Under the pieces are notes generated by a model. The model worked only from the letters and a program-made list of their open reading frames with translations. It made no database searches and had not been told where the DNA came from. Position numbers and translations under genes: made by a program. From positions 73,496 to 137,495 of the forward strand of contig CAZQTW010000007.1 in assembly GCA_964596165.1 (NCBI GenBank): 64,000 nucleotides of DNA, given 5' to 3'. Positions 5,628-58,828 of the stretch are shown piece by piece. The DNA comes from an uncultured Planctomycetales bacterium (GTDB taxonomy: Bacteria > Planctomycetota > Phycisphaerae > UBA1845 > JAFGLZ01). How positions within the stretch are numbered: position 1 is the first letter of the stretch; each line of letters begins with the position of its first letter.

Positions 5628-5676
5628 GGCATATGCCGGCAAGTCAGGGGGGCAGAAGCACCCGGCTGCGCCGGTG

Positions 5677-14373: not shown

Positions 14374-14387
14374 CGGCCGGCGCGCCG

Positions 14388-14520
14388 CACACTGGCGGAC
14401 GAGCCGCCAGTGGCACCCGTGCGCATGGGCTGGGTAGCGGCAGGGGCCGTCGCAGGCCGTAGACACTTTTCGGCCGGCGAGTCGCCGGCCGCTACCGAGT
14501 AACGGGGTGCGTCCGCGGCG
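14388..14520. repeat. REP-like palindromic repeat unit 1
   Basis: Begins with hairpin CACTGGCGG-acgag-CCGCCAGTG (14390-14412) and ends with GGGGTGCGTCCGCGGCG (14504-14520). Also contains palindrome CGGCCGGCGA-g-TCGCCGGCCG (14471-14491). Confidence 0.6.
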
Positions 14521-14546
14521 TGCAATGCACGCCTTGACACACCCAA

Positions 14547-14657
14547 CACACTGGCGGGCAAGCCGCCAGTGCCACCCGACGCAAACCTGCATGCCCACGT
14601 AAGCGTGCGACATGCCATCCGCCGCTACGGATCTATGTTGGGGGTGCGTCCGCGGCG
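14547..14657. repeat. REP-like palindromic repeat unit 2
   Basis: Begins with hairpin CACTGGCGG-gcaag-CCGCCAGTG (14549-14571) and ends with an identical GGGGTGCGTCCGCGGCG (14641-14657). The end overlaps the 3' end of the next CDS. Confidence 0.6.
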
Positions 14658-15325: not shown

Positions 15326-15344
15326 GGTCTTCCTGCCCGTTCAG

Positions 15345-18597: not shown

Positions 18598-18607
18598 GCC
18601 GTCGTAC

Positions 18608-20173: not shown

Positions 20174-20239
20174 CGGCCTCTTGACCAACCACGCTGGCCT
20201 AGGTAAGCTCATAGGTAGATTCCTATAAAGGCGTCGACC

Positions 20240-20488
20240 ATGCAGACCGAGCAGGCCAACTTCATGTTGCCCGCCGAACTTCTGCGAGAACTCCGCGCCC
20301 GCGTCCCCCGCGGGCAGCAGAGCCATGTGGTTGCCGATGCGCTCCGCCGTGAGTTGAGGCGGATGGCTTTGGTACAGGCGATCGAGAACAGTTTCGGCGC
20401 GTGGAAGGGACATTCACATCGTGAGTTATCCGGCGGCACGGGGGCGTATGTCCGCAGGTCTCGGCGGTCATCACGCGGGAGCGCGTAA
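20240..20488 (+). CDS. Ribbon-helix-helix antitoxin (VapB-like)
   Basis: 82 aa. The N-terminal FMLPAELLRELRARV is an RHH-type beta-strand/helix. The stop is 2 nt before the PIN gene ATG. Confidence 0.7.
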   Translation: MQTEQANFMLPAELLRELRARVPRGQQSHVVADALRRELRRMALVQAIENSFGAWKGHSHRELSGGTGAYVRRSRRSSRGSA

Positions 20489-22235: not shown

Positions 22236-24170
22236 CTACTCCTTCGGCCGGAGCGTCGCCGAGGCCGGATCGATCGCCAAGTGGCCGTCGCGTTTGGTAA
22301 TACCCAGGATCTTGTCCAGGCGCGGTTCCAGCGGATCGGGGCCGGTCAGGCCGAGCTTCGCTCGGACCTCGCGCCGCAGCCACCAGAAACCGGAGTTCCA
22401 CGAATACAGGTGGTGGCCATAAGGCTTGCCGGTGTTGGTGTCCAACGATTCATGGAACGCGGGCATCCAGGCGAGTTCCTTTTCCAGGCGCCAGAGCAAC
22501 TTATCGTCGACCCAGTTCGGATCCATGCCGTGGATCAGGCCGTCGAGGTAGTTTGCCGCGTCGTTGAGGAACCACGAGCCGCCGAAGACGTAGGCGCCGC
22601 TATGGCCGTCGAGCAGGTCGCCGTTCGCCTTTGAGATGACCCGCATGCCGTAGGGCGTCTGAATCTTCATCGTGGTCTCGAGGTGCTTTTTCACCATCTC
22701 GTCGGGCAACAGCTTGCGGCCGAAGACGGCATACGTCAGCACCTCGCCGTAGAGGGCGTCCTGACCGACATGGTCCTGCTGTTTGAGGCTTGTGGCGAAA
22801 TAGCCTCCGGCCTTGTTGAACATTCGCGCATAGCCGGCGATCGCCTTGTCGATCTCCGCGTCGGTCACCTTGAATCCCAACTCGCGGGCGGCCAGCAGGG
22901 CGCCGCAATGGAAGCCTTGGTTCGACGACGGCGCATCATCGTCGTCGTAGGGTAGCTGGTCGTGATAGGTCTTCATGCAAGCCCGGTCCGACGTCAGCCG
23001 TGGCGGGACGTAGAGTCCGTCGACCTCGTGACGGCGGATGAACTCATAGGCCCTCGTCACCGTTCGCGGGTCGATGTCGGCCCCGGCCTTCTTCACCATC
23101 ATCGACCAGATCAGGTAGTACTGGGCGTTATCCTCGTAGTCGACGCGCTCGTAGAAGACGGCCGCCTGCGACTCGGCGTCGTATTTCGGGTCGTCCAGCC
23201 CGCGGCTCATCCAAAATCCGTCGCTCACCCACTGTTTCCAGCCGTAGCCGACGCCCGAGATGAAGATGAAGTCACTTTCCGGCCGGAGCAGGTTACGACG
23301 GAGCAGCAGATACGACGTATTCCGCAGGATGGCCTCCAGACCCGATCGGTTGAATCCCTTCGCGTTCGCCAGGGCGACATGTGCGGCCAATTGAACGTCG
23401 TAGAGTGACGTGGCCGGTGAGTCGAAGATCCAGGTCCTGTAGGTCTGGGTTTGGCCGATCTCGATATGTTGCCAGCCGTCGAACGCCGCGCGATAGACGC
23501 TGGTGGCATCGACGCCGCGAGGAATTGAAATGGTCCGCCGGGCGGAGCCGTCTCCCGTTGTCAGCGACAGCCGTCGCTTGGCGACATCGAAGGCCATGAA
23601 GCAGCGATTCTCCCAAAGCCCGGGCGTGTCGCCGACAAAGCCGAAGAACCTGTCATCAACCCGGCAGCCGAGCATGGGAAACGTCTGGCGGGCGTCCTGG
23701 TTGAACTCGGGCCCCGCGCAGCCCGGGCTGTAGGCCTTCGTCGCGGGCTCCTTGCCGGTAAAGGAGTAGAAGTCGCCCTGGGTCGGCGCCTGCCAGCCCA
23801 GTTCGAGGTAGTACCGCTGGTCGGACTGTGCGGTGACGGTGACGGCTCGCTCGATGAGGTTCGGGTTGATCCGCCTCCAGGTCTCAGAAAGCGACAGGCC
23901 CGTCGCCTTGCCCCCGGTCAGCGTGATCGTACCGTCCTTCGGGTTGGCTTCGGCGTACCGGACGGCCGTCGTGCCGGTCGGCTGGACGACGATCAGGCTG
24001 GAATTCGTTTCGATCGGCGAGAAGAGAATCTCCTTGCCGTCGACGATCTGGACGCAAAAACCGTCCGCAGCCCTCACGAGATCGAATTGGACGTCGGCTT
24101 GGACGACCGCCGTCGTACCGATGAACGCGACGAACATTGGAATCCGGCCTGCAAACGTGTCTCCGCGCAT
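22236..24170 (-). CDS. Secreted protein, probable (alpha/alpha)6-barrel glycoside-hydrolase-like enzyme
   Basis: ATG at 24170 (or 24137) gives signal peptide ...MFVAFIGTTAVVQA. The C-terminal half (NQGFHCGALLAA..., GGSWFLNDAANYL, YSWNSGFWW) resembles six-hairpin glycosidases. The family is not resolved by eye. Confidence 0.5.
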   Translation of the reverse strand: MRGDTFAGRIPMFVAFIGTTAVVQADVQFDLVRAADGFCVQIVDGKEILFSPIETNSSLIVVQPTGTTAVRYAEANPKDGTITLTGGKATGLSLSETWRRINPNLIERAVTVTAQSDQRYYLELGWQAPTQGDFYSFTGKEPATKAYSPGCAGPEFNQDARQTFPMLGCRVDDRFFGFVGDTPGLWENRCFMAFDVAKRRLSLTTGDGSARRTISIPRGVDATSVYRAAFDGWQHIEIGQTQTYRTWIFDSPATSLYDVQLAAHVALANAKGFNRSGLEAILRNTSYLLLRRNLLRPESDFIFISGVGYGWKQWVSDGFWMSRGLDDPKYDAESQAAVFYERVDYEDNAQYYLIWSMMVKKAGADIDPRTVTRAYEFIRRHEVDGLYVPPRLTSDRACMKTYHDQLPYDDDDAPSSNQGFHCGALLAARELGFKVTDAEIDKAIAGYARMFNKAGGYFATSLKQQDHVGQDALYGEVLTYAVFGRKLLPDEMVKKHLETTMKIQTPYGMRVISKANGDLLDGHSGAYVFGGSWFLNDAANYLDGLIHGMDPNWVDDKLLWRLEKELAWMPAFHESLDTNTGKPYGHHLYSWNSGFWWLRREVRAKLGLTGPDPLEPRLDKILGITKRDGHLAIDPASATLRPKE

Positions 24171-24855
24171 GCCTCGCCTCCTGCCTTGGGCAGAAGTTGT
24201 AGCGGCACGAAAGGTTCTGTGGAAGGGCGCTGATGGAAGGATTTCAGTGGATCTGTTGTTCGCAGGCTGACGGTGCGTTATTGCCTCACCCGGATTGGCA
24301 ACCACCAGGCACGTTCGTAAGGCACGTTGTCCGGCGGGGGGTTTGCGAGCTTCTCTTGCCGGACCTTGACCCGACAGCACGTCCTCGACGTCTTGAAACG
24401 GTCTTGGCAGTCCAGGTAAACCGCGTCGTTCCTGCTCGCGTCGCTGCAATCGCGCCAAGGCTTCTGTCTAAACCTGTCTGAATGTGTACGATGCCTTGTC
24501 CCCTCATCGGTGACGGCTAGCATGACACTCGCTGCTTTCATCATGCGGACGTCTGCTCTTCCTGCTAAATGCTGCCGACAAGAAGGACGGCGGCTGGTTC
24601 GTCTCCGGCTCGCCGCGATTTGCCCTGGAGGGCGAGGCCCAATCGGGCCTCAAGCAGGCTTGGCTGGCCAATGAAGGTAAGGGCCTGCTCGCCACGCCAA
24701 TCCACATCGACAGACTTCAACCCACCGGCGCTCGCTTCCGTTCCTTTGCACCGGCATATGAACCGATCGCCAAGGACGATCAAGGAGGCGCCTGCCTGCT
24801 GACGCAAGCCGTCGGCCGCGGGCTTCTGGTCGCCGCCGCGGGTCCGATCATCCCG

Positions 24856-26514
24856 GTGGAATTGCTGGCCAATGCCTTCCTCCGCCTGCAGTGCCGAGGC
24901 GAGGTCTTCAATGTAGGATTGCTGCCGGGGGCCGAGACGGTACGGCTGGGCCAAAACGAACTGTTGTTGGGCATAGCGGAGTTGCCGGACTCCGCCGGCA
25001 ACGTCAACGTCTTGGTCGATGTGATCGATGCGGATGGGAACGTGTCGACGCTGCAGTACTTCAATACCTCCGTGGCGGGCGACGGCCTCCGCATTCCACT
25101 CCGGTACAACGCCAGCAGGGAAGGAGTCGGCCGAGTGGTGGTCAGCATCGCCGACCCGGTCGACGGTGCATTGTTGCGACGATTTTTCATCCCCTTGTTG
25201 CATGACCAACGTGTCGAGATCCTGCCGGACAAGAATTACTACACGACGAAGCCCCATGCCAACCTGCGGCTCCGCTACGTTGACGGGGCGCTCGCCAAGG
25301 CCTCAGTGCACGTCACGCAGGGCGACAGTGACCTCAACGTCGAACTGAGCGGAAACGGCATCCGGTTCGCCAAGGTGCCGATCGGGGGATTGTCAGCGGG
25401 GCAGCATAAGCTCGACGTGTCGTTCCTATTGGACGGGAAGGCTGCTTACGCCAAGACCGTGTTGATCCGCAAGGAGCCGTCGTTCCCGAATGCCGTCAAG
25501 CTTCTCTATCACCGGAACTGCATACTGGAGGTCGAGGGCACGCCCTTCTTTCCGTACGGCTGCTACGGCATTTCGGAGACGCAGGAAGCCGGCCTCATTG
25601 GGCTGGGCGTGAACACCGTGGTCGGAGCTAAACCGACCCAGAACCGCAAACTCTGGGTTGCCGAACACGGACTCGCGGGTTGGGCGACGAACAAGCAGTG
25701 GCCGCGCGAGAAGGTTCTCGACACGCTGCGTACCGATGGCTACGCCAGGCTTCTGTCGTGGTACATGTATGACGAGCCTGACTTGAATGGCCAGTCGCCT
25801 GATTTCGTCCGTGGTGTCTACGAGGCTGGCCGGCCCAAGGATCCCTACCATCCACAGATGATGGTTTACGTCGGAAGTTCAGGTTATCCGTGCTATCCCG
25901 ACTACATGCCGTTCGCCGACTGTCACATGATGGACCACTACCCATTGCCCTACGCCGCGCCGGCGACGTATGGCCTGTATCTCCGAAAGGTTGCCGAGGC
26001 CGCCCGGGGCACGCGGAACGTCTGGGGCGTACCGCAGTGTTTCGACTGGCGTGAGATCGGCACGGCGTTCGGCCCGTTCAAGAAGGAAAGTCTGCACCCC
26101 ACAGGCCGGGAGGCCCTCAACTACATTTACCAGTCCATCATTGAGGGCGCCGGCGCCATCACCTTCTGGACATACCGGTACGTCGCGGAGGACCCTCGCC
26201 GCCATGAACCCTTCCTGAAGGCCCTGGCGGAGGGCGCCAAACTGACCGACCTGGTTGTCCGCGGGACGGTCGTGCCGTCGCCACAAGTCAGGCCCTTCTC
26301 CTCGCAGATCCGTTGTCGCAGTTTCAAGCGGGGTAGCGAGGTCTACATCGTGGCGGCGAACTACCTGGAGCGCAAGGCCGATGTTGAGTTCGTCGCGCCG
26401 TACCTCAAGGAAGCTAACCTGCGGCAGTACTTGCCTGCCCCACGCACGCTCGGCTCACTCAAAGACACGTTCGAGCCGTTGGAGGGAAAAGTCTATGTGG
26501 CGGCAGTTCCCTAA
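24856..26514 (+). CDS. Glycoside-hydrolase-like TIM-barrel protein, 5' end unresolved
   Basis: ORF-track start is GTG at 24856, but the frame is open and coding-like from 24526. The C-terminal part (GVNTVVG..., SWYMYDEPDL, HMMDHYP, WGVPQCFDW) resembles GH42/GH5-type barrels. Confidence 0.55.
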   Translation: MELLANAFLRLQCRGEVFNVGLLPGAETVRLGQNELLLGIAELPDSAGNVNVLVDVIDADGNVSTLQYFNTSVAGDGLRIPLRYNASREGVGRVVVSIADPVDGALLRRFFIPLLHDQRVEILPDKNYYTTKPHANLRLRYVDGALAKASVHVTQGDSDLNVELSGNGIRFAKVPIGGLSAGQHKLDVSFLLDGKAAYAKTVLIRKEPSFPNAVKLLYHRNCILEVEGTPFFPYGCYGISETQEAGLIGLGVNTVVGAKPTQNRKLWVAEHGLAGWATNKQWPREKVLDTLRTDGYARLLSWYMYDEPDLNGQSPDFVRGVYEAGRPKDPYHPQMMVYVGSSGYPCYPDYMPFADCHMMDHYPLPYAAPATYGLYLRKVAEAARGTRNVWGVPQCFDWREIGTAFGPFKKESLHPTGREALNYIYQSIIEGAGAITFWTYRYVAEDPRRHEPFLKALAEGAKLTDLVVRGTVVPSPQVRPFSSQIRCRSFKRGSEVYIVAANYLERKADVEFVAPYLKEANLRQYLPAPRTLGSLKDTFEPLEGKVYVAAVP

Positions 26515-26665: not shown

Positions 26666-27301
26666 CTAGGCCTTCATCTTCCGGACGACGCCGACAACCA
26701 CGCCCTGAATCCTCGCCTCCTTGACGTAGATCGGTTCCATGCTGGAATTGGCAGGTTGGAGTCGTATTCGGTCGCCCTCGCGGTAGAACTTCTTAAGCGT
26801 GGTCTCGCCGGTGTCGAGAAGGGCGACGACCGTCTCGCCGTCGCGCGCGGTCTCCCGGCGCTCGGCAATCACATAATCACCCTCGCGGATCTGGTCCTCA
26901 ATCATGCTCTCGCCCCGAACCCGAAGGGCGAACCGAGAGCCCCGCGTGGCAAAGACTTCCTCCAAATCGAGCACGTCCGCATCCTGGAGGGCTTCAACCG
27001 GAACACCCGCCGCAATTCGTCCGAGCAACGGTATCCGTGTCGAACGTTCATCGGGAAAACTCAGTTGAGGAGCCAGCTTCAACGATCGCGCCTTGTGCCG
27101 ATGCCGCTTGAGAAACCCCTTCTTGTGCAATACGCCAATGTGCTCGAAAATCGTGACCTTGCTCACCTCAAAGTGGTCCGCCAGTTCCTGAAGCGTCGGC
27201 GCGTAGCCGTACTCCCGCTCGTAGTCCCTCACGTAAGTCAGAATGGCCAGTTGTTTCGGCGTCAACGGCTTCGACCGGCGAGGATCAGTGGGGGGCGACA
27301 T
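26666..27301 (-). CDS. lexA: LexA repressor
   Basis: N-terminal winged HTH (LTPKQLAILTYV...PTLQELADHFEVS). Autocleavage and catalytic motifs are GESM (Ser) and TLKKF (Lys). 211 aa. Confidence 0.93.
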   Translation of the reverse strand: MSPPTDPRRSKPLTPKQLAILTYVRDYEREYGYAPTLQELADHFEVSKVTIFEHIGVLHKKGFLKRHRHKARSLKLAPQLSFPDERSTRIPLLGRIAAGVPVEALQDADVLDLEEVFATRGSRFALRVRGESMIEDQIREGDYVIAERRETARDGETVVALLDTGETTLKKFYREGDRIRLQPANSSMEPIYVKEARIQGVVVGVVRKMKA

Positions 27302-29585: not shown

Positions 29586-30071
29586 TCAGATCTTTCCGTC
29601 GTCGATGTGTCGTTCGTAGTGGAGATCGGCCAGCGGCTGAATGAGATCGGTCGTCCGCTCGATGCTGCCGTTGATACCCGTGCGAAGCGACAGTAGGATC
29701 ATGGCGGCGGCCGCTGCGCCCGCCGTCCGGGCGAGCGGACCCTCTATCTTGGGCCAAATCCCGACCGAAGGCTTGGCCTTCCGTAATTGATCCGCTTTGG
29801 GGGTTGCGCGAAGCGTGCGAGCAAGCATGCCGAGCGCCCGTTCGTTGGCCCGGCCGATCAGCCCGATCGGGGCGGCCTGGGTCGCCAACAACGTAAACCC
29901 GGCGCTCACGCGAGAAATCCGTTGAATCCGTGCCCGACACTTCGGGCAGGTCGCCGCGTGTTCAAGAAGTCTCTCCGGTACGGGTCCGCCCTTATCGATC
30001 CACCGCGTCAACAACGCACGGCGGGTTCGGCACCGCCCATCGGTCCCGCCTTGTGTTCGCCGTGCTCTCAT
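29586..30071 (-). CDS. Anti-sigma factor with zinc-binding ZAS motif
   Basis: H-x3-C-x2-C motif in LEHAATCPKC. The start codon overlaps the sigma gene stop (TAATG at 30069-30073). Confidence 0.6.
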   Translation of the reverse strand: MRARRTQGGTDGRCRTRRALLTRWIDKGGPVPERLLEHAATCPKCRARIQRISRVSAGFTLLATQAAPIGLIGRANERALGMLARTLRATPKADQLRKAKPSVGIWPKIEGPLARTAGAAAAAMILLSLRTGINGSIERTTDLIQPLADLHYERHIDDGKI

Positions 30072-30652
30072 TACGACTCCTCCTTCGCCAGCATCACCGA
30101 CAGCCGAATGACCGCCTGTCGGCGGTACACCCTGGCCGTTCCGTCGGTGATTCCCAGAATCCTGGACACCGAGCGATAGTCATGGCCCGCCAAGTCGTGA
30201 AGGACGACCACATCCCGAAGATGTGGCGGCAAATCCATGACGGCCTGTCGCACACGATCCACCATCCCCAGGTGATCCAGGTTGGCGCTCACGTCCGGGC
30301 TCTCTGGGCGATGCGCCCGCCGGGCGACCATCGCAAGGCGGTCACGCTCCCGCTTCCGTCGGCGCATGAGTTCGATGGCCGCATTCATCGCGGCCCTGTA
30401 GAAATAGGCGCCGCGATCACCTCTGATGCCCTTGTTGGTCCTCGCCGCCAGTTGGCACACCACGCTCTGATAGGCGTCGCACACGTCCTGCTCGCGCCCC
30501 AACATCCGCCAGAGAACCGCAACAATATCGGGGCCATGGCGCTGCAGAAGTGTGAGGATCCACTTCTGACCTGCGGCGGTGTCGGCCGAGGCCAGTTCCT
30601 CCAATATCCCGCGGAGGCTCGCGGGTAGGCTGGCAACAGCGATTCGGGACAT
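30071..30652 (-). CDS. ECF-type RNA polymerase sigma-70 family factor
   Basis: Region 2 (DVCDAYQSV...AYFYRAAMNAAIELMRRR) and region 4 (LPPHLRDVVVLHDLAGHDYRSVSRILGITDGTARVYRRQAV). 193 aa. Confidence 0.85.
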   Translation of the reverse strand: MSRIAVASLPASLRGILEELASADTAAGQKWILTLLQRHGPDIVAVLWRMLGREQDVCDAYQSVVCQLAARTNKGIRGDRGAYFYRAAMNAAIELMRRRKRERDRLAMVARRAHRPESPDVSANLDHLGMVDRVRQAVMDLPPHLRDVVVLHDLAGHDYRSVSRILGITDGTARVYRRQAVIRLSVMLAKEES

Positions 30653-30676
30653 GCCCGGTCCCCTGTTTCACCCTCA

Positions 30677-30705
30677 TTATAGACGGCCACCAAGTGGCTG
30701 TGTTA
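30677..30705 (-). promoter_or_regulatory. ECF-type promoter candidate for the sigma/anti-sigma operon
   Basis: On the minus strand: TAACAC (30705-30700), 14 nt, CGTCTATAA (30685-30677), i.e. AAC-N16-CGT. It lies 24 nt upstream of the sigma ATG. Confidence 0.5.
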
Positions 30706-30747
30706 ATCGAAATACTTTCGGCCGCGAGGCGGCCATCCCCGGGGCGC

Positions 30748-30776
30748 TAACACCTCGTCTGGTTCCACGTCTATAA
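30748..30776 (+). promoter_or_regulatory. ECF-type promoter candidate for the GspE-like operon
   Basis: TAACAC (30748-30753), 14 nt, CGTCTATAA (30768-30776). The hexamer, spacing and 9-mer are identical to the divergent copy. It lies 28 nt upstream of the ATG at 30805. Confidence 0.5.
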
Positions 30777-30804
30777 CCTCGGAAGGCAACAAGGATCCTT
30801 CATC

Positions 30805-31977
30805 ATGGCCCGTAGCGATACCCCACCCTCCGATGCGGTTGTCAAGTTAGTGGACGGTCTACTGGCCCGCGCGGTTCGCGAACGGGCCAGCGACGTCCAC
30901 TTCGAGCCCGCCGAGCGGCAACTGCTCGTCCGATTCCGGCTCGACGGTCTCCTTCATGACATCGAGCGTCTGCCGGCCGAGATCGCTGACAACGTGATCG
31001 CCCGGCTCAAGGTGATGGCCGCCTTGTTGACTTATCGCATCGATATCCCGCAGGAGGGCTCGCTGCCGGCATCGCACTTCTCGGCGGGTGGAGACTCCGC
31101 CGCGCTGGACATGCGGGTGGCAACGTTCCCGACGATTCGCGGCGAGCGCGCCGTCGTGCGAATCATGTATTCGGGCTCGGGTATCGGTGAACTCAGTGAA
31201 CTGGGCTTTGCAACCGACATAGTTCGGCTGCTTCGCAAGGCGGGCGAGCAACAGTCCGGCCTCGTGGTCGTCACCGGACCGGCCGGCGCGGGCAAGAGCA
31301 CCACGCTCTACGCCATTGCCAGGCACATCCTGGCGTCCACACCCGGTCGCAGCGTCGTCGCGCTCGAGGACCCCGTCGAGCAGCGCGTCGAGGGGATGAC
31401 GCAGATTCAGATCGCCCCGCACGGCGAGCTGGACTATCCGCGGGCGATGCGATCGCTGCTCCGTCAGGACCCACAGGTCCTTCTGATCGGCGAGGTTCGA
31501 GACGCGCACACGGCCAATGTGGTCGTCGAGGCGGCGCTGACCGGCCACCTGCTCCTGACGACCATGCACAGCGGCGATCCGGCCGAGGCCGTCATCCGAC
31601 TCCTGGAAATGGGAGTGCCTCCGTATCAGGTCGTGAGCACGTTGAGTCTGGTCTGTTCGCAGCGGCTCGTCCGGAGGTTGTGTCCGGCCTGTCGCCGCCA
31701 GACCGGCCGACCGGAGGAGCCTTTTCAGCGAGCGGGATGCGACGAATGCCACCAGACCGGCTATCGCGGGCGGATCGGCTGTGGGCAGGTCCTTCTGATG
31801 GACGACTCCGTCCGCCCGGCGATCCTTGCCCATGCGACGACGGCCGGACTCCGGGAGATCGCCTTGCGGCAGGGCCCGAGCCTGGCGGACGATGCCGGTC
31901 GCCTGGTCCGCGAAGGCCACACCGACGCGGACGAGGTGCGGCGGATCATCGGCCAACCGGTTGGCCAAGGAGTGTGA
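30805..31977 (+). CDS. GspE/PilB-family secretion ATPase, short form lacking the N1 domain
   Basis: ASDVHFEP...RFRLDGLL, Walker A GPAGAGKSTT, the Asp box, Walker B LLIGEVRD, the His box TGHLLLTTMHS, and a tetracysteine CPACR...CDECHQTGYRGRIG. Only 390 aa. Confidence 0.9.
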   Translation: MARSDTPPSDAVVKLVDGLLARAVRERASDVHFEPAERQLLVRFRLDGLLHDIERLPAEIADNVIARLKVMAALLTYRIDIPQEGSLPASHFSAGGDSAALDMRVATFPTIRGERAVVRIMYSGSGIGELSELGFATDIVRLLRKAGEQQSGLVVVTGPAGAGKSTTLYAIARHILASTPGRSVVALEDPVEQRVEGMTQIQIAPHGELDYPRAMRSLLRQDPQVLLIGEVRDAHTANVVVEAALTGHLLLTTMHSGDPAEAVIRLLEMGVPPYQVVSTLSLVCSQRLVRRLCPACRRQTGRPEEPFQRAGCDECHQTGYRGRIGCGQVLLMDDSVRPAILAHATTAGLREIALRQGPSLADDAGRLVREGHTDADEVRRIIGQPVGQGV

Positions 31978-31980
31978 ACC

Positions 31981-33180
31981 GTGCCTTGGTTTGAATATGA
32001 AGGGGTGTGTCCCGGCGGGACGGCGATTGCGGGCCGAGTCGAGGCCGAGAGCCACGACGCGGCACAGCGGCTCCTCGGCGAGACGATGCGGGTTGTCCTG
32101 AGCGAAGTGCGCGAGGCGAAGCCACCACCCGCAAAGGCTGCCATCGGAGAAGCGGACCTCATCTTCTTCAACGAACAACTGGCCTCATTGGCCTCGGCGG
32201 GACTGGCGCTCGACGAAGGGCTTCAACAGCTCGCCCGTGATGTCGACTCGCCTCGGCTTCGAGGCTTCATCGAGGCGGTGGCGGTGGACCTTCGCCGCGG
32301 CGAGACCATCGAGCAGGCGATCGCCAAGCACGAAGCTCAATTACCTTTGCTCTACAGCCGAGTCATTCGCGCCGGCGTCCAGAGCGGTCAGCTCCCCGCA
32401 ACGCTGCTGAACCTCAACCAGCACCTGCGGCTCATGGGCATGACGCGCCAGGTCCTTTGGGAGATTCTGGCGTACCCCATCTTCGTACTGGTGGCCGGGC
32501 TGATAATCGTGTCGCTCTTTTTCATCAAGGTCGTGCCGCAGTTCAAGGAGATCTTTTACGACTTTGGATCAAAACTCCCAGGACCTACGCTTCTATTGCT
32601 TAGGGTGGCCGACTCGTTTCCACGTATCCTCATTGCGGTGGGCGTCATTGCCGTCCTCATTGTTGTCGGGTGGCAACTTCTGAAGCTGACGCCCGGTGGC
32701 CGACGATTTCGAGAGCGCTTCGTGGCCGCCATTCCCATCGTGGGGCGAGTCTATCGTGCCTCGCTGGTCTCGCGATTCGTCCGGTCGGTGGCCACCAGCG
32801 TCCAGGCGGGCGTCACGCTGCCCGAGGCCCTTCGACTGGCGGGCGGCGCTACCGGGAGTCCCGGACTGGGCGTCGAGGCCGACCGAATCGCCGCCGACGT
32901 CGAGCGGGGCGGGTCGATCTTCGAGGCCTCACAACTCTGCCAATGGATACCCGCCATCTTCGGATACACGGTTCAGGTGGCATTAGGTCGCGACGCGTTG
33001 TCATCCGCCCTGATGCAGCTTTCGGACACCTACGAATCACGCGCAACCCACTATCAATCGATGTTGCGAGTCATCATGTTCCCTGTCGTGGTGATCCTCG
33101 TCGGCGGCTTCATTGCATTGGGTGTGATCGGGCTTTTCCTGCCGCTGGTAAGCCTGGTCAACGCGGTGAGCGGCGGCTGA
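31981..33180 (+). CDS. Type II secretion system F (GspF/PilC) platform protein
   Basis: 399 aa. Two T2SSF repeats (FFNEQLASLASAGLALDEGL...; FVRSVATSVQAGVTLPEAL...), three TM segments and a PQFKEIFYDFGSKLPGPT linker. GTG start. Confidence 0.85.
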   Translation: MPWFEYEGVCPGGTAIAGRVEAESHDAAQRLLGETMRVVLSEVREAKPPPAKAAIGEADLIFFNEQLASLASAGLALDEGLQQLARDVDSPRLRGFIEAVAVDLRRGETIEQAIAKHEAQLPLLYSRVIRAGVQSGQLPATLLNLNQHLRLMGMTRQVLWEILAYPIFVLVAGLIIVSLFFIKVVPQFKEIFYDFGSKLPGPTLLLLRVADSFPRILIAVGVIAVLIVVGWQLLKLTPGGRRFRERFVAAIPIVGRVYRASLVSRFVRSVATSVQAGVTLPEALRLAGGATGSPGLGVEADRIAADVERGGSIFEASQLCQWIPAIFGYTVQVALGRDALSSALMQLSDTYESRATHYQSMLRVIMFPVVVILVGGFIALGVIGLFLPLVSLVNAVSGG

Positions 33181-33208
33181 GTCTTGTCGTGCAACGAGGT
33201 GGCGACCC

Positions 33209-34885
33209 ATGTTGGTCTTCCCGATCCTCTTTGTGGCCCTGGTCCTGTTCACCGGCGGGGTCGCCCTGGCCGTCACGGAGCGACGGCGGGGTATCGCCCG
33301 TACCGTCGTTCGCCAGATGGCCATGGTGACGTCGCAGAATCTGCCGCTCGGCACCGGCCTGATGCTCGCGGGCAGAGGCGAACGGGGAAAGGCCGGCAGA
33401 ATCCTCCAGCGCGTCGCCGATCTGGTTTCCCAGGGCGTGCCGCTGGGCGAGGCCGTCGTGCAAGGCTACCCCAATTGCCCGGGCCTGATCGTCAGCGTCA
33501 TTCAGGCCGCCCAGCAGGTGGGGCGACTGGCCGGCGCCTTGCGCATGCTGAGTCGCGATCTGGACCGGCACGAGCGGCGTCGGTCGAAGATCATGCCGCT
33601 GGCGATCATCTACGCACTGTTCCTGTTGTTCGTCCTGCTCATCGTGTGGACGAGCATCATGATCGTCATCGTGCCGAAATTCAAAGAGATATTCTCCGAC
33701 TTCGGGGCGAAGCTACCGGGGGTAACTGTCTTCGCCATGCAGTTATCCGAGGACGTGGCCAACCGAATCCTCATTCCGGTGGCGGTCTTCTGGCTGGTCC
33801 TGGCCATTCCGTTCGGATTGTACCGCCTGTTCCGCCCTCGGGCGTCGGGTCGATCCAAAGGTCGCGACACCGTCGTAATCTTGCTCCGCGTCGTGGTGGT
33901 GTTGATGTTGCTCGTGCTGGTCGGCATGGTCTCTTCGCCAATCTCTGTCCTTTCCAGGACGGGTTGGAATCCGACCATCCTATTGGCTTCTCCGCCCGGC
34001 GACTTCGCCAGGTTGGATCCGCTCGTGACACTTGCCGTTTTGGTAGTGGTCTTGGCGCTCGTAGTGGGGTTCAACCGCATCGTGTGGTACCGTTCCGGCT
34101 ATCCACCTGAACTACTGAGTCGAATTGTTCAGCAGATCCGCCGTGTGAGGATCCAGGGCGTGGCCGCCGCGTTTCTCTGCGTGGTCATCCTGATGGAACT
34201 GGCCGTACTGTTCATGATCGTGGGACTGTTTCTGTTCCGGCCGGCCGGCCTCGCGATGAGTCTCACCGATATCCGGCGCCACGGCGTTGAGTGTGTCGTC
34301 GAGATGCCGTGGGTGCCGCTGGGTATTGTTGGATTCTTTCTGGCAATTCCACTGAGTCTGCACTGGGTGTTTCGATCTCGCCGGCCGGCGCGACCTTTCA
34401 CAGCCTCCGTGATCGCCGACGGCGTTCGATGGCGCATGCCCGGCCTCGGACGAATGCAGATGGCCGAGGGCATGGCGACGTTCGCCTCGCTCCTTCGACT
34501 CTTCGTGGGCGCGGGGATGCCGCTGGGTCGGGCCGCCGCTCTCGCCGGCGAGGCGGACATGAATGCCGTGCTGCGTCAGCGGGTCCGACGGTTTGCGGAA
34601 ATGATCGATCTCGGAACGCCGCCGCCCATGGCGGCCGACCAGGCCGGCCTCGGCATGATCCTCGCCACCGCGCTGCGGAGCGGACAAGTCGGCGACCGAT
34701 TGGATGCGTCGCTGCGATTCGCGGCCGACTACTACCGATCGATCGTCAGTCGGTTCTGGATCGTCCTCCGCACGATCATGTGGCCGGTGCTAACGCTGAT
34801 CATGGCCGTTCTCGTCGGGACGTTCGTCGCGGCGATGTTCCTGCCGCTCGTGGCCCTTATCAATGCGGTCCTGGAAACGGTGTGA
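33209..34885 (+). CDS. Divergent GspF-like platform paralog with a large multi-TM insertion
   Basis: 558 aa. It has an extra N-terminal TM and T2SSF repeat 1 (VTSQNLPLGTGLMLA...), then PKFKEIFSDFGAKLPGVT. An insertion of about 190 aa (residues about 210-400) carries at least 4 hydrophobic helices. T2SSF repeat 2 follows (FASLLRLFVGAGMPLGRA...). Confidence 0.75.
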   Translation: MLVFPILFVALVLFTGGVALAVTERRRGIARTVVRQMAMVTSQNLPLGTGLMLAGRGERGKAGRILQRVADLVSQGVPLGEAVVQGYPNCPGLIVSVIQAAQQVGRLAGALRMLSRDLDRHERRRSKIMPLAIIYALFLLFVLLIVWTSIMIVIVPKFKEIFSDFGAKLPGVTVFAMQLSEDVANRILIPVAVFWLVLAIPFGLYRLFRPRASGRSKGRDTVVILLRVVVVLMLLVLVGMVSSPISVLSRTGWNPTILLASPPGDFARLDPLVTLAVLVVVLALVVGFNRIVWYRSGYPPELLSRIVQQIRRVRIQGVAAAFLCVVILMELAVLFMIVGLFLFRPAGLAMSLTDIRRHGVECVVEMPWVPLGIVGFFLAIPLSLHWVFRSRRPARPFTASVIADGVRWRMPGLGRMQMAEGMATFASLLRLFVGAGMPLGRAAALAGEADMNAVLRQRVRRFAEMIDLGTPPPMAADQAGLGMILATALRSGQVGDRLDASLRFAADYYRSIVSRFWIVLRTIMWPVLTLIMAVLVGTFVAAMFLPLVALINAVLETV

Positions 34886-34887
34886 TC

Positions 34888-35319
34888 ATGAGAGGTGCAA
34901 CCCAAGACATCGTTGCACGTGATGCCGTGCTCGGCGTGCCTGTCGCTGCATCGGCGCGCCGGGGCATTATCAACACGGAGATGATGGCGAGCATCGTGAT
35001 CCTGATGCTCGTCGCCGGACTTCTGCTGGCGATGTCGTCCGCCTACGTGCGGTCCCGCGGTGATCTGATGCGCGAGCGCGTGCTGCGGCTTGCCGCTCAG
35101 GCCCAACTGGAGCGGTACCGGGCCGGTGTTCGACTGGACACACCGCCGCCGGCTGACACTCTCCCCGACGGCGTCACACTGAAGACGACCACCACGCCCG
35201 GCAGCGGCGTGTGGACCGGCATGACCCAGGTGACGGTGACGGCCAGCGCGCTCGACGTCAAGAAGCGGGAGCACCACGTAACGATCTCCGGCTATCTTCG
35301 GGAGGTATCGACGAAATGA
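34888..35319 (+). CDS. Pseudopilin-like protein with degenerate prepilin signal
   Basis: ATG is 2 nt after the preceding stop. ...SARRG|IINTEMMASIVILMLVAGLLLA has Gly at -1, Glu at +5 and a hydrophobic helix. 143 aa. Confidence 0.5.
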   Translation: MRGATQDIVARDAVLGVPVAASARRGIINTEMMASIVILMLVAGLLLAMSSAYVRSRGDLMRERVLRLAAQAQLERYRAGVRLDTPPPADTLPDGVTLKTTTTPGSGVWTGMTQVTVTASALDVKKREHHVTISGYLREVSTK

Positions 35320-35840
35320 CCCCTACCCGACCCAGAGCCTTCACGCTGTTCCACACGCTGATGGCCGTCACGCTGGCCGGTGTCGCACTGAGCATCGGAA
35401 TGCCGATGATCATGCAATCGATCGGAATCCAGAAGCGGGTTTCAATGTGGGTGAATGATGACGCCGTAACCCAGCAGATCATCCGGCAGGTGCGCCGCGA
35501 TATGTCGTCAGCAAACCAGGTGGAGATCGTTCAAGATCAATTCCCCGTCCTGCTGCTGCGCGGGCCCGTAGGCCAGGTGCGATATGAGAATACGCCCGAT
35601 GGCATCGTCCGCCTCGCGACGCCGACGGGCCGAACGCCTTCTCGGTCGCTCTACCCACTTCGTCGCTCGGTGATTGACTGGCGTTGCGAGCGGGTCGATG
35701 CGGGAGGCACCATCATCTGGCTCGTCGTGGAAATCCGCGATCCCGTTGGAAAGCAGCGCGGGAAGACCGTCACCATGAACCAGCGATATGCCACCGCGTT
35801 GCGTCCGGGCATATCGGCGAGGCAGGAGGACGTGCGATGA
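35316..35840 (+). CDS. Pseudopilin-like protein (atypical: Ala -1, His +5)
   Basis: ATGA start/stop overlap at 35316-35319. The N-terminus is MTPTRPRA|FTLFHTLMAVTLAGVALSIG. 174 aa. Confidence 0.45.
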   Translation: MTPTRPRAFTLFHTLMAVTLAGVALSIGMPMIMQSIGIQKRVSMWVNDDAVTQQIIRQVRRDMSSANQVEIVQDQFPVLLLRGPVGQVRYENTPDGIVRLATPTGRTPSRSLYPLRRSVIDWRCERVDAGGTIIWLVVEIRDPVGKQRGKTVTMNQRYATALRPGISARQEDVR

Positions 35841-36226
35841 GGCGCAGGGGCTTCGGGCTCATCCTGGTTCTGGCCGTCATGACGCTGGTCGGAACGGCGC
35901 TCACGCTCATGGCGTTGCACGTGGGACAGTTGGCGCGGCAGCGTCAGCACGATCGCGCCCGAACGTTCGCGCAGGTCGTGCTCGACAGCGGAGTGGCCTA
36001 TGCCCGTTCACACCGGGGCCCGGTCGCTACGGCGCCCAGCACCACCGAGGTTGCGCTTCCGACGGAAGGCCTCTTGCCCGCGCCGGCCAGGGCAAGCCTT
36101 ACGCTCCAGCCGGCCGACGACGGATCGATCCGCGTCATTGCACGCGTCGACTACGGCCGCGCCCACGCCACCGAAGAGGCCGTGATCGCGACGACAGTCC
36201 CGGCCGGCAGGCCACGAACGCCGTAA
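35837..36226 (+). CDS. GspK-like or minor-pseudopilin-like small protein
   Basis: ATGA overlap at 35837-35840. The N-terminus MRRRGFGLILVLAVMTLVGTAL resembles GspK N-termini. 129 aa. Confidence 0.4.
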   Translation: MRRRGFGLILVLAVMTLVGTALTLMALHVGQLARQRQHDRARTFAQVVLDSGVAYARSHRGPVATAPSTTEVALPTEGLLPAPARASLTLQPADDGSIRVIARVDYGRAHATEEAVIATTVPAGRPRTP

Positions 36227-36425
36227 GGGGCTGGTCAAGCCTACTTCCTCTTGAGAATGGCTCGCCAGCCCGTCGGGGGGACGTACCCTCGGTAGATATT
36301 CAGGTTGCTTGACCGGACGTTTTCGACGGTGGTGAGGACGTCGGAATCGACGGCTTCCCACCCATTCATCATACCGGTTCCCATGAATGCGGGGGTTGGT
36401 GAATTGCCGACCCGGGCCGAAGAGT

Positions 36426-37754
36426 CTACGCCCCCTTTGTCCGCCCCATCCATCCCAGTTCGGGCAGATCGCCGAGGGCGTCTCGGAATAGGCGGTAGTA
36501 CAGCAGTTCTTCCTTGCTGTTGAGCCGCCAACCGTTGGAGAGCGTGCGCTCGCGGAGGAACTCACCGTCCGGAATGCTCTCATCGGCATGGCGCGCCAGA
36601 AGGTCGCCGACGCCGGTTCCCTCCCAGAACTTCGCCTTGGTGCGACGTCGCACCGGTTCAGGCAGATCCTCGCCGATCGCCTGTCGAAGAATCCATTTCT
36701 CAATGCCGTTATGAAGTTTCAGTTCCGCCGGGATCCTCAGGGCGTATTCGACGACGATCGGGTCAAGAAACGGTACCACCGCCAGCAGACCGTGGGCCTG
36801 CGAACAACGATCCACGCGCTGAAGAGCGGTGTTGTGAAGCCGTGCAATGATATCCAATAGTTCGGCGGCCAGCTTCTCTCTCGGCAGGGCCTTCAGGTAG
36901 TCGTAGCCGGCGAAGAGTTCGTCGCCGCCCTCTCCGGAGAGGACGGCCGGCACGAATGAGGCGGCCGCCTTGCCCGCCGAATAGTTCATGACACTCGAAC
37001 GGACCAACAGGGCGTCAAACGATTCCAGGTGGCGAATCACCTCCGGCAGACGGCGCAGCACGTCGCGAAGCGAGAGCATAATCTCGTGATGCTCGCTGCC
37101 GATGAAATCGGCGACCTGCCGTGCGTACACCAAGTCCGGAGCGCCCGCAAGACCCGTGGCGAATGTGTGCAGGACCTTCACGTGTCGGCGGGCCAACGCC
37201 GCCAGGATGCTCGAGTCCAGCCCACCGGACAGCCAGACCCCGATGCCGTCCACGCCGAACGACTTGACCACAGCCGACTCCAGTCGGTTTCGGAGCTCGG
37301 TGGCGATGCGACCGGCCGACTCGTCCAAGATCGGACCGGGTTGTATGCCGGAGCACGAGGGTGCAACCAAGCCGTCGTGTTGCCCTCCCGGCGGCAATTC
37401 AAAGACGTCCGACGTCACGGTGAGCAGGGACTTCACTTCCGAGGCAAAACACAACGTGCCGTTCTGCGTGCGCCCGAAATACAACGGGGCCACACCCATC
37501 GCATCACGGTCCAGCATCAGATGATCCCGCCGCCAGGCGGCCCGGGCGAACCGCCCGTCGCCCGAGGCGTCCTGGACGGTCGCCTCGGCCATGCTCAGAC
37601 TGCCCGGCTGTGCCCGTGGCCACACGGCGCCCAACGTGACTTCGCCGGCTTCGAAGACCTCACGGCCGGCGCCGCCGCGGTGAATCATCACCTCCAACAT
37701 CCGTCGGACGTCTTCCCGGCGGCCGGCTTGAGCGATTCCTGCAATCCCCGCCAT
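36426..37754 (-). CDS. Asparagine synthetase B-family protein lacking the N-terminal Cys nucleophile
   Basis: The N-terminus is MAGIAGI (canonical MCGIxG), and the Ntn domain is short. PP-loop VWLSGGLDSS, then LSGEGGDELFAGY. 442 aa. Confidence 0.85.
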   Translation of the reverse strand: MAGIAGIAQAGRREDVRRMLEVMIHRGGAGREVFEAGEVTLGAVWPRAQPGSLSMAEATVQDASGDGRFARAAWRRDHLMLDRDAMGVAPLYFGRTQNGTLCFASEVKSLLTVTSDVFELPPGGQHDGLVAPSCSGIQPGPILDESAGRIATELRNRLESAVVKSFGVDGIGVWLSGGLDSSILAALARRHVKVLHTFATGLAGAPDLVYARQVADFIGSEHHEIMLSLRDVLRRLPEVIRHLESFDALLVRSSVMNYSAGKAAASFVPAVLSGEGGDELFAGYDYLKALPREKLAAELLDIIARLHNTALQRVDRCSQAHGLLAVVPFLDPIVVEYALRIPAELKLHNGIEKWILRQAIGEDLPEPVRRRTKAKFWEGTGVGDLLARHADESIPDGEFLRERTLSNGWRLNSKEELLYYRLFRDALGDLPELGWMGRTKGA

Positions 37755-37758: not shown

Positions 37759-39645
37759 CTACCTCCACGCGGATCGCGCCGATTCCATGCCGCTGAGTGT
37801 CCGTCGCACGCGGTCCGCCGCGGACACGGGCATCCCGTGCTCGTCCACCACCTTGACCGCCCCGTGGATCACACGCGTTTTCCACTCGACCGCCCGGCGG
37901 AATTCGTCACGGCATTCCCATAGGTAAGGAACGGGGAGAAATCCCGCCGCGAAGATTCGGTATAGCCCCTCGGCGCTGTATGCCTGCGGTATCGACCTTT
38001 CAATTCCGTCGATTACGACGCGGGCCTCGCCGAGCAATTCGTCAGTCCTGTGCATGACCTCCGGATGATGCGTCATGTCGTCCACCGCCCCCGTTGCCCG
38101 AAGCCGGCGGTATTCAGTCAGGGCGTGCCGGATGATCTGGATGCTCTCATCCACTACGGAGGGATCCGCCAGGTGAGAGGCCTCCGAGTAGCTTACGACA
38201 TGGATGATCGGCGGACTGCCGGTGTCGCGGGGCTCGATGTCGTCCATCAGCGCGGTCACGGCGGCAAGCTGGGCCTTGGCCGTTTCCAGATCCGACGAGA
38301 AGTAGTCCAGTCCGGCGCGAGGCTGAAGGATCACGCGGAAGGTCCTGCTTTGAAGTCCTCGGAGCAGGTAGAGCATCGCTCGGGACTTGGCAAGGTCCTG
38401 GACTCCCCAGGTAGTCTTCGGCGTGTTAAGCATGTTCTGGAGGATCAAGCAGCCTATCCCCGATTGCTTCGCCGCCCTGGCCGCCAGATAGGCCGAGACC
38501 ACATACGTCACGTCGTCGGCACCGCGAAACGCGAAATGGTGTGGGACGTTCGGCTCGAACGGCTTGCCCGTCTCGACCACGCATCGCAGCGTTTCGAAAT
38601 GCTGTTCGAGATTCTCTCGGAGGGAATAGGGGCCCCTTCCATCAATCCGGCAGAACCACCAGAGGGACAGGGCGTGCCAGGCGATGTGGATGGTCCGCTC
38701 GTACATTCGAGCCAACTCGGGGATGTTCCGTGTCCCCGCGTAGGCGCGGACCAGCATCGGGCGGGCTGCGGCCCATACGGCGGAAAACTCTTCCGGGGAA
38801 TTCAACGGCACGCCGCCACCGTTCGGCAAGCCACCCCAATCCATGCCGAAATGCGACTGCGTGAGTTGCGACGTCCCGATGGACAGGACATCCAGGAATC
38901 CCGACGCGGCGAGCCGCCGAGTCCAGTCGAGGAACAATCGGACCGCCTCGTCTCGATCAGGAAGGTACGGACCGACATGCGCACGCATCAACGGAAGCGC
39001 CCGTGCCTCCGTTGCCGCCCTCAGCCTCGTTGCGACCGTATCCCGCTCGGTTCCAAACCCGTCGTAGCCGCCCCGGGCGGGCGGGCGAACGGCCATGTAT
39101 TTCCCCTTGGCGACGAGGTCCTTGCCGAACGCGAGACGGGCGTCGTCATAGGCGACGCCTTGTACCCAATCACCGGGGAGGACGGCCGGATCGATCCCCA
39201 GCATTCGCAGCGTCTCGCCCGACGTTTCGTCGCCCGTGAAGACGCCCGCGACGCTGGGTACTCGACGACGAACGAGTTCACACGTTTGCGGAAGCCCGGC
39301 GAAGTAGATTCCCTTCAAGGGGCCGCCTTGGTCGGCCCACAGACGGCGGCTCTTGAGCAGATGGATCAGGCGCTCGAACGTCTCGGCGCCTTCGGCCGGG
39401 TCAAGTCGAAAGCTGAAGCCGAGAACGGTAATACGATTCTCGGCAAGCCACCGCTCGATGATCGCCGGGGAATCGGCATCGTCCAGTTGGCCGAAGGCCC
39501 CACAGGTCCGGGCGTCCGCAATCACGGTCCGGACGCCGCACGCCTCCAGGAGCTGCTGAACGGAGAAGAGCCCAAGCGTGTGCGCGTCGAGGGCCGGCCG
39601 GACCAGCCCGAAGCCGTCCTCTCGTGTGATCGGCGTGTTCTTCAT
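37759..39645 (-). CDS. Cobalamin-binding-domain protein fused to a large barrel-like domain (glutamate-mutase S+E-like, tentative)
   Basis: The N-terminal 140 aa carries DAHTLGL (a D-x-H-x-x-G B12-binding signature) followed by VLGFSFRL and IYFAGLP. The remaining 480 aa shows pattern resemblance to GlmE (MRAHVG..., PNGGGVPLN, VRAYAGTRN). The combined size equals GlmS plus GlmE. Confidence 0.6.
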   Translation of the reverse strand: MKNTPITREDGFGLVRPALDAHTLGLFSVQQLLEACGVRTVIADARTCGAFGQLDDADSPAIIERWLAENRITVLGFSFRLDPAEGAETFERLIHLLKSRRLWADQGGPLKGIYFAGLPQTCELVRRRVPSVAGVFTGDETSGETLRMLGIDPAVLPGDWVQGVAYDDARLAFGKDLVAKGKYMAVRPPARGGYDGFGTERDTVATRLRAATEARALPLMRAHVGPYLPDRDEAVRLFLDWTRRLAASGFLDVLSIGTSQLTQSHFGMDWGGLPNGGGVPLNSPEEFSAVWAAARPMLVRAYAGTRNIPELARMYERTIHIAWHALSLWWFCRIDGRGPYSLRENLEQHFETLRCVVETGKPFEPNVPHHFAFRGADDVTYVVSAYLAARAAKQSGIGCLILQNMLNTPKTTWGVQDLAKSRAMLYLLRGLQSRTFRVILQPRAGLDYFSSDLETAKAQLAAVTALMDDIEPRDTGSPPIIHVVSYSEASHLADPSVVDESIQIIRHALTEYRRLRATGAVDDMTHHPEVMHRTDELLGEARVVIDGIERSIPQAYSAEGLYRIFAAGFLPVPYLWECRDEFRRAVEWKTRVIHGAVKVVDEHGMPVSAADRVRRTLSGMESARSAWR

Positions 39646-58711: not shown

Positions 58712-58828
58712 GGCCTCTCCTGTCTCTGTTTGAGTTGTCGGCAAGTCGCTCGTGACGTGACGCAAATGCATATCCCGCGGGTTCAGATTCTCGTAAGACT
58801 GCAAGACACGCGGTCCTGCGATTCGCCC

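Follow-up and report, generated by a model that had tools for sequence, protein, structure and literature searches.

Denise et al. (2019, PMC6668835) define a "generic" type IV filament (TFF) system by three components, namely an ATPase of the PilB/GspE family, a platform protein with T2SSF domains and a pilin bearing a class III signal peptide. Here we describe a locus that contains all three (one ATPase, two T2SSF platforms and a small protein, sA, with a class III signal) in a 64,000-nt stretch of DNA, referred to below as the window, from an uncultured Planctomycetales bacterium (GTDB class Phycisphaerae; GCA_964596165.1, contig CAZQTW010000007.1, positions 73,496–137,495 of the forward strand). 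According to the open reading frame (ORF) list of the window, eight genes at 29586–36226 are arranged in two divergent units: on the minus strand a sigma factor of the extracytoplasmic function (ECF) type and its anti-sigma, a putative zinc-binding anti-sigma (ZAS) protein, and on the plus strand the ATPase, the platform proteins GspF and GspF′, and three prepilin-like proteins, sA, sB and sC. It is probable, in our judgement, that they form a self-contained unit in which the ECF sigma, under its ZAS anti-sigma, switches on the inner-membrane core of a machine of the T2SS (type II secretion system), T4P (type IV pilus) or Com class. A sequence-only reading of this DNA had already proposed a stripped-down pseudopilus machine under ECF control, and that proposal is supported here through divergent promoters and through the co-conservation of the module. 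Its two further suggestions, induction by stress and DUF1559-type proteins as substrates, find no support in the present data. The module is a distinct branch of the known type IV filament superfamily and not a new kind of system, and there is no sign of a departure from the general principle of pilus assembly. No description of the module itself was found in the literature searched.

Comparison with described systems

The T2SS (Gsp/Pul/Eps) shares with the module the order of ATPase, platform and pseudopilin-like genes, an ATPase for which GspE is the best model and which carries a Cys4 zinc motif, a platform protein (the module's GspF) that matches the GspF profile end to end, and, in the small proteins, a minor-pseudopilin-like pattern, with a glutamate at position +5 (E5) in the first two and not in the third. 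It differs in that no secretin, GspC/L/M or GspO gene was found among window ORFs of at least 180 aa, the ATPase is without N1, a second and distinct platform paralog is present, the channel glutamate is lost from both platforms, the operon holds no GspG-type major pseudopilin, and every NCBIfam equivalog cut-off is missed by the module proteins. The type IVa pilus (T4aP) differs as well, since the module has a single ATPase and none of the PilT type, and no PilM/N/O/P/Q domains were found in the window scans.

The comGA–GG operon is likewise a compact arrangement of an N1-less ATPase, a platform without Glu-Pro and small pilins, the last of them without E5, with the peptidase encoded elsewhere and no secretin. 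In contrast to it, the module has two platforms and no detected ComGC-like major pilin, does not reach the ComGA and ComGB cut-offs, has no DNA-uptake genes nearby, and is associated with an ECF sigma in place of control by ComK or ComX. Its host is presumably a diderm planctomycete, unlike the Gram-positive hosts of Com systems.

Two homologous platform genes in tandem are otherwise a feature of Tad/Flp, the only bacterial TFF class known to have them, and of some archaeal systems, where the tandem genes are single-domain products of gene fission (PMC6668835). TadB and TadC, which have been proposed to assemble as a trimer of heterodimers (PMC10790770), accordingly carry one T2SSF domain each, whereas GspF and GspF′ of the module both carry two.

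The nearest planctomycete comparator, judged on gene content, is the Plim_0401–0410 locus of Planctopirus limnophila, in which nine of the ten genes scored as essential (PMC10632474). There, too, "type II secretion" ATPase and platform genes are followed by small phylum-restricted proteins, and no secretin is annotated among the ten; that locus, however, encodes three ATPases (two GspE-like, one PilT-like), a single platform protein and six proteins of unknown kind, and no ECF pair is reported for it. As far as sequences can tell, the module has two unusual molecular features, a duplicated full-length platform and the loss of the channel glutamate, and in addition a dedicated ECF switch.

The ATPase

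The ATPase gene (30805–31977, plus strand) encodes 390 amino acids (aa) that match Pfam T2SSE with E = 5.8e-97. NCBIfam models score it at 364 bits for GspE, 340 for PilB, 217 for ComGA and 120 for PilT, all below the equivalog cut-offs, and the TadA-family model reaches 23 bits. Since the match to the 486-position GspE profile covers positions 108–485 only, the N1 (GspL-binding) domain is absent, in agreement with what had been read from the sequence at first. The Walker A motif GPAGAGKS, the Walker B motif, the His box and the C-x2-C...C-x2-C zinc motif are present and kept in seven of eight orthologs; in one distant locus, L022, the ATPase has no Cys4 zinc motif. Grouping with the PilT-type ATPases is ruled out by the 120 bits against 340–364 for PilB and GspE and by the absence of the AIRNLIRE signature, and the scores and the zinc motif together place the enzyme in the GspE/PilB assembly type.

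Outside the module, Pfam scans took in window ORFs of at least 180 aa, and among the 40 further ORFs of this size no Secretin, Peptidase_A24, GspL/M/C or PilMNOP domain was found, as the sequence-only reading had also noted for secretin, peptidase and GspL/M/C. Nor did the flanks of related loci, as annotated, show a secretin. With an ATPase that lacks N1 and no GspL/M/C found in the window, the machine probably works without a canonical alignment complex.

A duplicated platform without the channel glutamate

The predicted platform protein GspF (31981–33180, plus strand, 399 aa, GTG start) matches Pfam T2SSF in two stretches (E = 9e-36) and spans the TIGR02120 GspF profile from end to end, scoring 190 bits against a cut-off of 424. 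Its paralog GspF′ (33209–34885, plus strand, 558 aa) also shows two T2SSF stretches (E = 8.7e-28), bearing out the two platform genes called previously. In GspF′ an N-terminal hydrophobic helix replaces the N-domain, and hydrophobic sequence is found at residues 1–25 and again across 182–389; the latter marks a lineage-specific insertion of ~180 aa between the two cytoplasmic domains (~182–389), with roughly five or six extra hydrophobic segments. Most GspF′ orthologs, at 376–385 aa, are without this insertion, and two (P0002 and L006) have partial versions of it. Many distant members of the family carry instead an N-terminal extension of ~100 aa. With both proteins full-length and two-domain, GspF and GspF′ are best described, on domain content, as a true duplication.

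Searched exhaustively with HMMER, the GspF′ profile gave 530 clusters at E ≤ 1e-30. The top 150 of them matched the whole profile with 199 bits or more, whereas generic GspF proteins, the module's own GspF included, reached at most 115 bits (E ≥ 6e-28) against the same profile under local calibration. By these profile scores GspF′ is a distinct family of up to ~530 clusters at 50% identity, cleanly separate from generic GspF. An apparent extreme rarity of GspF′ (six relatives, 4 of 185,579 species representatives, and three metagenome contigs) proved to be an artefact of word- and pattern-based searching that HMMER corrected; pattern-based scans for GspF′ reach close relatives only.

PulF is a trimer, and in GspF/PilC proteins a Tyr-Pro in transmembrane segment (TMS) 1 and a Glu-Pro in TMS3 line the channel of the trimer, the glutamate being conserved (PMC10790770). 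Both the Tyr-Pro and the Glu-Pro were recovered in all six control GspF-like proteins. In the module, GspF keeps the TMS1 Tyr-Pro, and the TMS3 glutamate is replaced by Phe in the window copy and by Phe, Leu or Gly in nine of ten orthologs (the remaining one, L018, gives no clear reading). GspF′ of the window reads Trp-Pro in TMS3, and among 150 representatives of its family this position is Trp in 92 and Glu in 5, with the proline kept in 149.

Small prepilin-like proteins

The three small genes, sA (34888–35319, 143 aa), sB (35316–35840, 174 aa) and sC (35837–36226, 129 aa), follow on the plus strand, and no significant Pfam or NCBIfam pilin model matches any of their products. The sequence-only reading had described them as overlapping genes with degenerate class III signals. 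The overlap stands, as does the absence of E5 from sB and sC of the window, but the signal of sA is not degenerate, and the starts of the genes had to be corrected.

The sA signal, RRG↓IINTE, is canonical, with Gly at −1 and Glu at +5, and in the orthologs examined position −1 is Gly, Ala or Ser and position +5 is always Glu or Asp. An AlphaFold2 model built from a seven-sequence alignment has a mean predicted local distance difference test (pLDDT) score of 80 and consists of one long helix (residues 21–78) set against a three-stranded antiparallel sheet; as modelled, this is a minimal pilin-like topology. One sA homolog has been named pseudopilin PulG by JGI. For sB, whose window copy has the signal PRA↓FTLFH, position −1 is Gly or Ala among the orthologs, and E5 is found in all of the distant lineages (L013, L014, L016, L018, L020, L022 and L023). 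The signal of sC, RRRG↓FGLIL, belongs to an RRRG↓hGLhh-type leader with Gly or Ala at −1 and an acidic residue at +5 in no ortholog; it resembles GspK, PilX and ComGG in lacking E5, and the N-terminus of sC gives weak NCBIfam matches to GspH/I/K (E 0.014–0.03).

The class III signals of the small proteins are kept across deep divergence, and the family-wide pattern at +5 for sA, sB and sC is E5, E5 and no E5. With this pattern and gene order, the three would suit a priming set of minor pilins such as GspI/J/K or PilV/W/X; sA might instead be the main subunit and polymerise.

The N1-less ATPase, platforms without the channel glutamate, small pilins, a ComGG-like last one without E5, the 217-bit ComGA score and a weak match of sA to ComGE (E = 0.015) are all what a Com-like competence pseudopilus for DNA uptake would lead one to expect. 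The ComGA score nevertheless falls short of its cut-off of 300 while GspE and PilB score far higher, ComGB reaches 90 bits with GspF and 54 with GspF′ where 240 are required, and there are two platform genes, not one. ComGB has Gln-Pro at the channel position (PMC10790770), whereas the platforms here have Phe-, Leu- or Trp-Pro. Neither the Pfam scans of the window nor the annotation around related loci showed a ComEA/ComEC-like gene, and no ComGC-like major pilin was detected. Taken together, we hold a role in competence to be highly improbable.

The sigma/anti-sigma pair

The sigma gene (30071–30652, minus strand, 193 aa) encodes an ECF (group IV) protein of the sigma-70 family, with Pfam Sigma70_r2 and Sigma70_r4_2 above their cut-offs and 58.4 bits for TIGR02937 against a cut-off of 42.9. 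It has the sigma-2 and sigma-4 regions only, as the ECF definition asks, and reaches no NCBIfam equivalog model. Its stop codon overlaps the start of the anti-sigma gene (29586–30071, minus strand, 161 aa) as TAATG; the minus strand reads AAGGAGGAGTCGTAATGAGAG here, with AAGGAGG just upstream. Gene calls and junction agree in this respect with the translationally coupled ZAS and ECF pair that had been proposed.

The Pfam zf-HC2 match of the anti-sigma is below threshold (E = 0.037), and the ZAS call rests on the ligand set C14...H38-x3-C42-x2-C45, which is kept in all six close orthologs and whose HxxxCxxC part is also present in the distant L016, L020 and L023. The protein is regarded here as a putative zinc-binding, sigma-holding anti-sigma. 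In one locus (L014:981–1577) an Arg replaces the ZAS histidine (RLSTCESC), and sigma, promoters and module are intact there. Anchoring of the anti-sigma in the membrane is unsupported, with the best 19-residue hydropathy window at 1.37.

The pair is similar to SigR–RsrA pairs, in which an ECF sigma is likewise co-transcribed with an anti-sigma bearing C...HxxxCxxC and is autoregulated from an ECF-type promoter that has AAC in its −35 and CGT in its −10 element. It differs from them in that its anti-sigma has an extra conserved C-terminal half (QPLADxHxERHI) and in that its apparent regulon is a pilus-type machine, as opposed to thiol-stress genes. The ZAS motif alone is no demonstration of redox sensing by the anti-sigma. 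The literature searched, which covers planctomycete ECF factors incompletely, describes no ECF group tied to T2SS-like genes.

Predicted divergent promoters and operon structure

An AAC-containing −35 and a CGT-containing −10 are typical ECF promoter elements. Between the sigma and ATPase genes lie two exact and mirrored copies of TAAC-N16-CGTC, one facing the sigma gene (30682–30705, minus strand) and one facing the ATPase operon (30748–30771, plus strand). The sigma-facing site, TAACacagccacttggtggcCGTC, is followed by TATAAT, its CGTC ending 29 nt upstream of the sigma start codon, and the operon-facing site, TAACacctcgtctggttccaCGTC, ends 33 nt upstream of the ATPase ATG. The former is predicted to be an autoregulatory promoter.

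Each close genome has two such mirrored copies in sigma–ATPase intergenic DNA that is otherwise diverged, and the exact divergent pair occurs in nine genomes, namely the eight close ones and the distant L023. The inner spacing is always 16 nt and the distance from motif to motif varies from 36 to 141 bp across genomes, and therefore these appear to be two independent −35/−10 promoters, not one palindromic operator. In related loci the pair is found at the equivalent place and essentially nowhere else. The 64-kb window contains three exact matches against 1.14 expected, two of them in the 152-bp intergenic region. The third (49448–49471, minus strand), considered as a further site, lies inside an ORF and is in line with chance expectation. 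The ORF that holds this probable chance match (47298–49610, minus strand) encodes 770 aa that include a hydrazine-synthase alpha middle domain (PF18582, E = 8e-26).

A position weight matrix (PWM) built from the 16 sites of the eight close genomes gives the two window sites ~34 bits (34.4 for the sigma-facing one) and the next best site in the window 11 bits; by this measure no further gene in the 64-kb window, the prepilin-like gene discussed below included, is a candidate member of the regulon. The divergent TAAC-N16-CGTC promoters give the regulatory link between the sigma and the operon direct backing from sequence.

No sigma-70-type promoter was predicted in the sigma–ATPase intergenic region. 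At 30676–30685 the −10 CGTC of the sigma-facing site runs straight into TATAAT (CGTCTATAAT), the sigma-70 −10 consensus, as it does in four of the eight close genomes; it may provide basal housekeeping transcription of the sigma operon.

On the plus strand the GTG start of GspF lies 3 nt past the ATPase stop, and the junctions of the small genes read TGATCATG or ATGA, those of sA/sB and sB/sC both being ATGA. Given the two ATGA overlaps and the 3-nt gap between the ATPase and GspF genes, the operon from the ATPase to sC is tightly coupled.

Conservation of the module as a unit

A word-indexed search with GspF′ returned six relatives, all of them metagenome-assembled genomes (MAGs) of Phycisphaerae, in which the eight genes keep their order and orientation while the flanks differ each time, and tblastn with all eight window proteins finds them colinear in L001, L003, L004, L006, L007 and L012. 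The full eight-gene module is present in the window and in these six loci as well as in L014, L016, L020 and L023, the last of which stands at the far end of the listed family, and five short contigs (L010, L011, L013, L018 and L019) are colinear as far as they extend. The module has been seen so far in MAGs of Phycisphaerae and other Planctomycetota.

Identity to the window copy in the five close loci L001, L003, L004, L006 and L007 is 65–72% for the ATPase (49–72% over a wider set), 61–67% for GspF, 59–66% for the sigma, 49–55% for the anti-sigma, 47–54% for sA, 28–37% for sB and 41–53% for sC. The sigma pair accompanies the module in 11 of the 12 genomes whose upstream side is visible, with different flanks and with sigma identity going down to ~39% (39–66% for the sigma orthologs adjoining the module in these 11 genomes). 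An all-against-all comparison of flanking ORFs yielded no further gene family common to three or more genomes. The sequence-only reading had named two findings that would refute it, a module not co-conserved with the sigma pair in relatives and an ATPase of the PilT type. Neither is seen, as the pair goes with the module in these genomes and the ATPase is of the GspE/PilB type. The recurrence of all eight genes, colinear in many independent genomes, puts the arrangement far from chance.

This record bears on the question of whether the module could be what remains of a duplicated T2SS locus, decaying or without function. The absence of many canonical parts, the lack of E5 from sB in the window's clade and the 180-aa insertion in the window GspF′ would all suit decay. 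Such a history is nonetheless scarcely credible when none of the eight reading frames is broken in any complete locus, the ATPase retains all catalytic motifs at 49–72% identity, the short promoter motifs are conserved within otherwise diverged intergenic DNA, and GspF′ belongs to a family of hundreds of clusters with a conserved Trp-Pro signature.

A different concern is that the module may be one locus of an ordinary multi-locus T2SS or T4aP whose secretin, alignment proteins, major pilin and peptidase lie elsewhere. T4aP genes are commonly dispersed among several loci and one prepilin peptidase often serves more than one system (PMC6668835), and 64 kb of the genome is visible, in which a GspG-like prepilin gene is indeed found 25 kb away. 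That gene is a minus-strand ORF (4506–5696) whose product passes the TIGR02532 prepilin model and has an N-terminus like that of GspG (E = 9e-9), followed by a C-terminal ~280 aa without a detected domain. A DUF1559-type protein had been reported at 4506–5450, but neither DUF1559 nor H-X9-DG was detected in the 4506–5696 product at the thresholds used. No ECF-type promoter lies upstream of it, and the module's promoter recurs at no other window site. The ATPase, moreover, is missing the N-terminal domains through which GspE/PilB connect to partners of the GspL/PilM type, GspF′ forms a family of its own set apart from generic GspF, the channel glutamate is missing from both platforms, and the same eight genes alone move through different neighbourhoods with a private sigma and promoters. 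We consider it unlikely, in view of these points, that the module is a part of an ordinary dispersed system.

In L016 (L016:3988–6636) two genes stand between those for the ATPase and GspF, one for a tail-specific protease of the S41/PDZ kind and one for a thioredoxin-fold lipoprotein similar to ResA/TlpA, with a CGFC active site and an LNAC lipobox-like signal. These genes would be co-transcribed with the module, and together with the ZAS motif they give only a hint of an envelope or redox context. A ~980-aa protein encoded directly downstream of the module in two loci (L002:10942–13878 and L012 ~13500–16462) was considered as an outer-membrane conduit and set aside, as it adjoins only these two modules and has no tblastn match in the window. 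This protein has a signal peptide, lies on the module strand and is weakly LptD-like (E ~2e-7).

A model for the module and its weak points

In the model that we favour, that of a self-contained, ECF-switched core, the anti-sigma would release the sigma on some signal, and the freed sigma, with RNA polymerase, would act at both TAAC-N16-CGTC promoters, whose motifs and conservation are observed and whose use by this particular sigma is proposed. The sigma-facing promoter would re-express sigma and anti-sigma, providing autoregulation with positive feedback, and the other would transcribe the genes for the ATPase, GspF, GspF′, sA, sB and sC as one operon. A hexamer of the N1-less ATPase might then dock on a mixed GspF/GspF′ platform, for which the trimer of PulF (PMC10790770) and the hetero-oligomers of TadB and TadC (PMC6668835) serve as analogies, and this platform would assemble sA, sB and sC, once cleaved by a peptidase, into a pseudopilus (endopilus) of short length or a priming tip. 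A prepilin peptidase, as well as any secretin or extra major pilin, would be supplied from elsewhere in the genome.

Several observations weigh against this model. Both platform paralogs are without the channel glutamate that is deemed functionally important (PMC10790770), and for this reason the machine may work unlike PulF, or GspF and GspF′ may not form the same channel. Structural support for the small proteins is thin: Foldseek found nothing significant in the PDB for the sA model (lowest E 0.43), profile searches of the PDB gave sB a weak match to the N-terminal helix of type IV pilins (E ~0.01) and sA and sC noise, and a single-sequence AlphaFold2 model of sB was unusable (pLDDT 39). 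The sB proteins from most of the clade close to the window have exchanged E5 for His, Asn or Ala, a loss that is unusual for a polymerising subunit. On the regulatory side, we infer use of the promoters by the module sigma from their position and ECF-like geometry only; in L016 the site facing the sigma reads TAAT-N16-CGTC and the operon is without a clear N16 site, in L020 no promoter site can be recognised, and L022 (5888–12492) has the six-gene operon without the sigma pair, with a HAF-repeat protein divergent from it instead.

A bolder proposal is that the module represents a separate TFF lineage, with a hetero-oligomeric platform of full-length GspF and GspF′ in which aromatic or aliphatic residues replace the ion-coordinating channel glutamate, without an alignment complex of the GspL/M/C or PilMNOP type and possibly without a secretin, and with an ECF-gated endopilus that is confined to the periplasm and made up entirely of the three subunits. 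We regard this as possible but doubtful. If it were true, the module would be a natural test case for whether the ion channel proposed for GspF/PilC is needed in filament assembly.

For the favoured model of a self-contained core, too, the locus has its uses. One N1-less ATPase, two platforms and three pilin-like proteins would make a natural minimal TFF core, useful for asking which parts are required, and a dedicated sigma/anti-sigma pair with identifiable divergent promoters offers a tractable regulatory circuit. The loss of the channel glutamate either challenges the generality of the channel model or marks a mechanistically different branch. Planctomycetota encode very large numbers of prepilin-like proteins, for which the module is one candidate machine; the data presented here draw no link to them.

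Other features of the window

The wider neighbourhood of the module is housekeeping and catabolic in character and comprises genes for DnaE, an RND efflux pair, RecA, LexA, BioD, an S-adenosylmethionine (SAM) hydroxide adenosyltransferase, an AsnB-like protein and glycoside hydrolases. Among these, DNA polymerase III alpha (495–4196, plus strand), RecA (17527–18597, plus strand) and LexA (26666–27301, minus strand) lie in the same window with no tie to the module seen. For five large ORFs (552–808 aa) neither Pfam nor NCBIfam gave a match at the thresholds applied, three of them on the left of the module (18509–20413, minus; 22236–24458, minus; 24856–26514, plus) and two on the right (37759–39645 and 56378–58804, both minus). 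The terminator-like sites found in the region by a consensus scan are no more numerous than expected by chance; one of them, a weak hairpin at 36228–36242 on the plus strand, lies directly 3′ of the sC stop, with an AsnB-like gene (36426–37754) next on the opposite strand, and suggests that the operon ends there.

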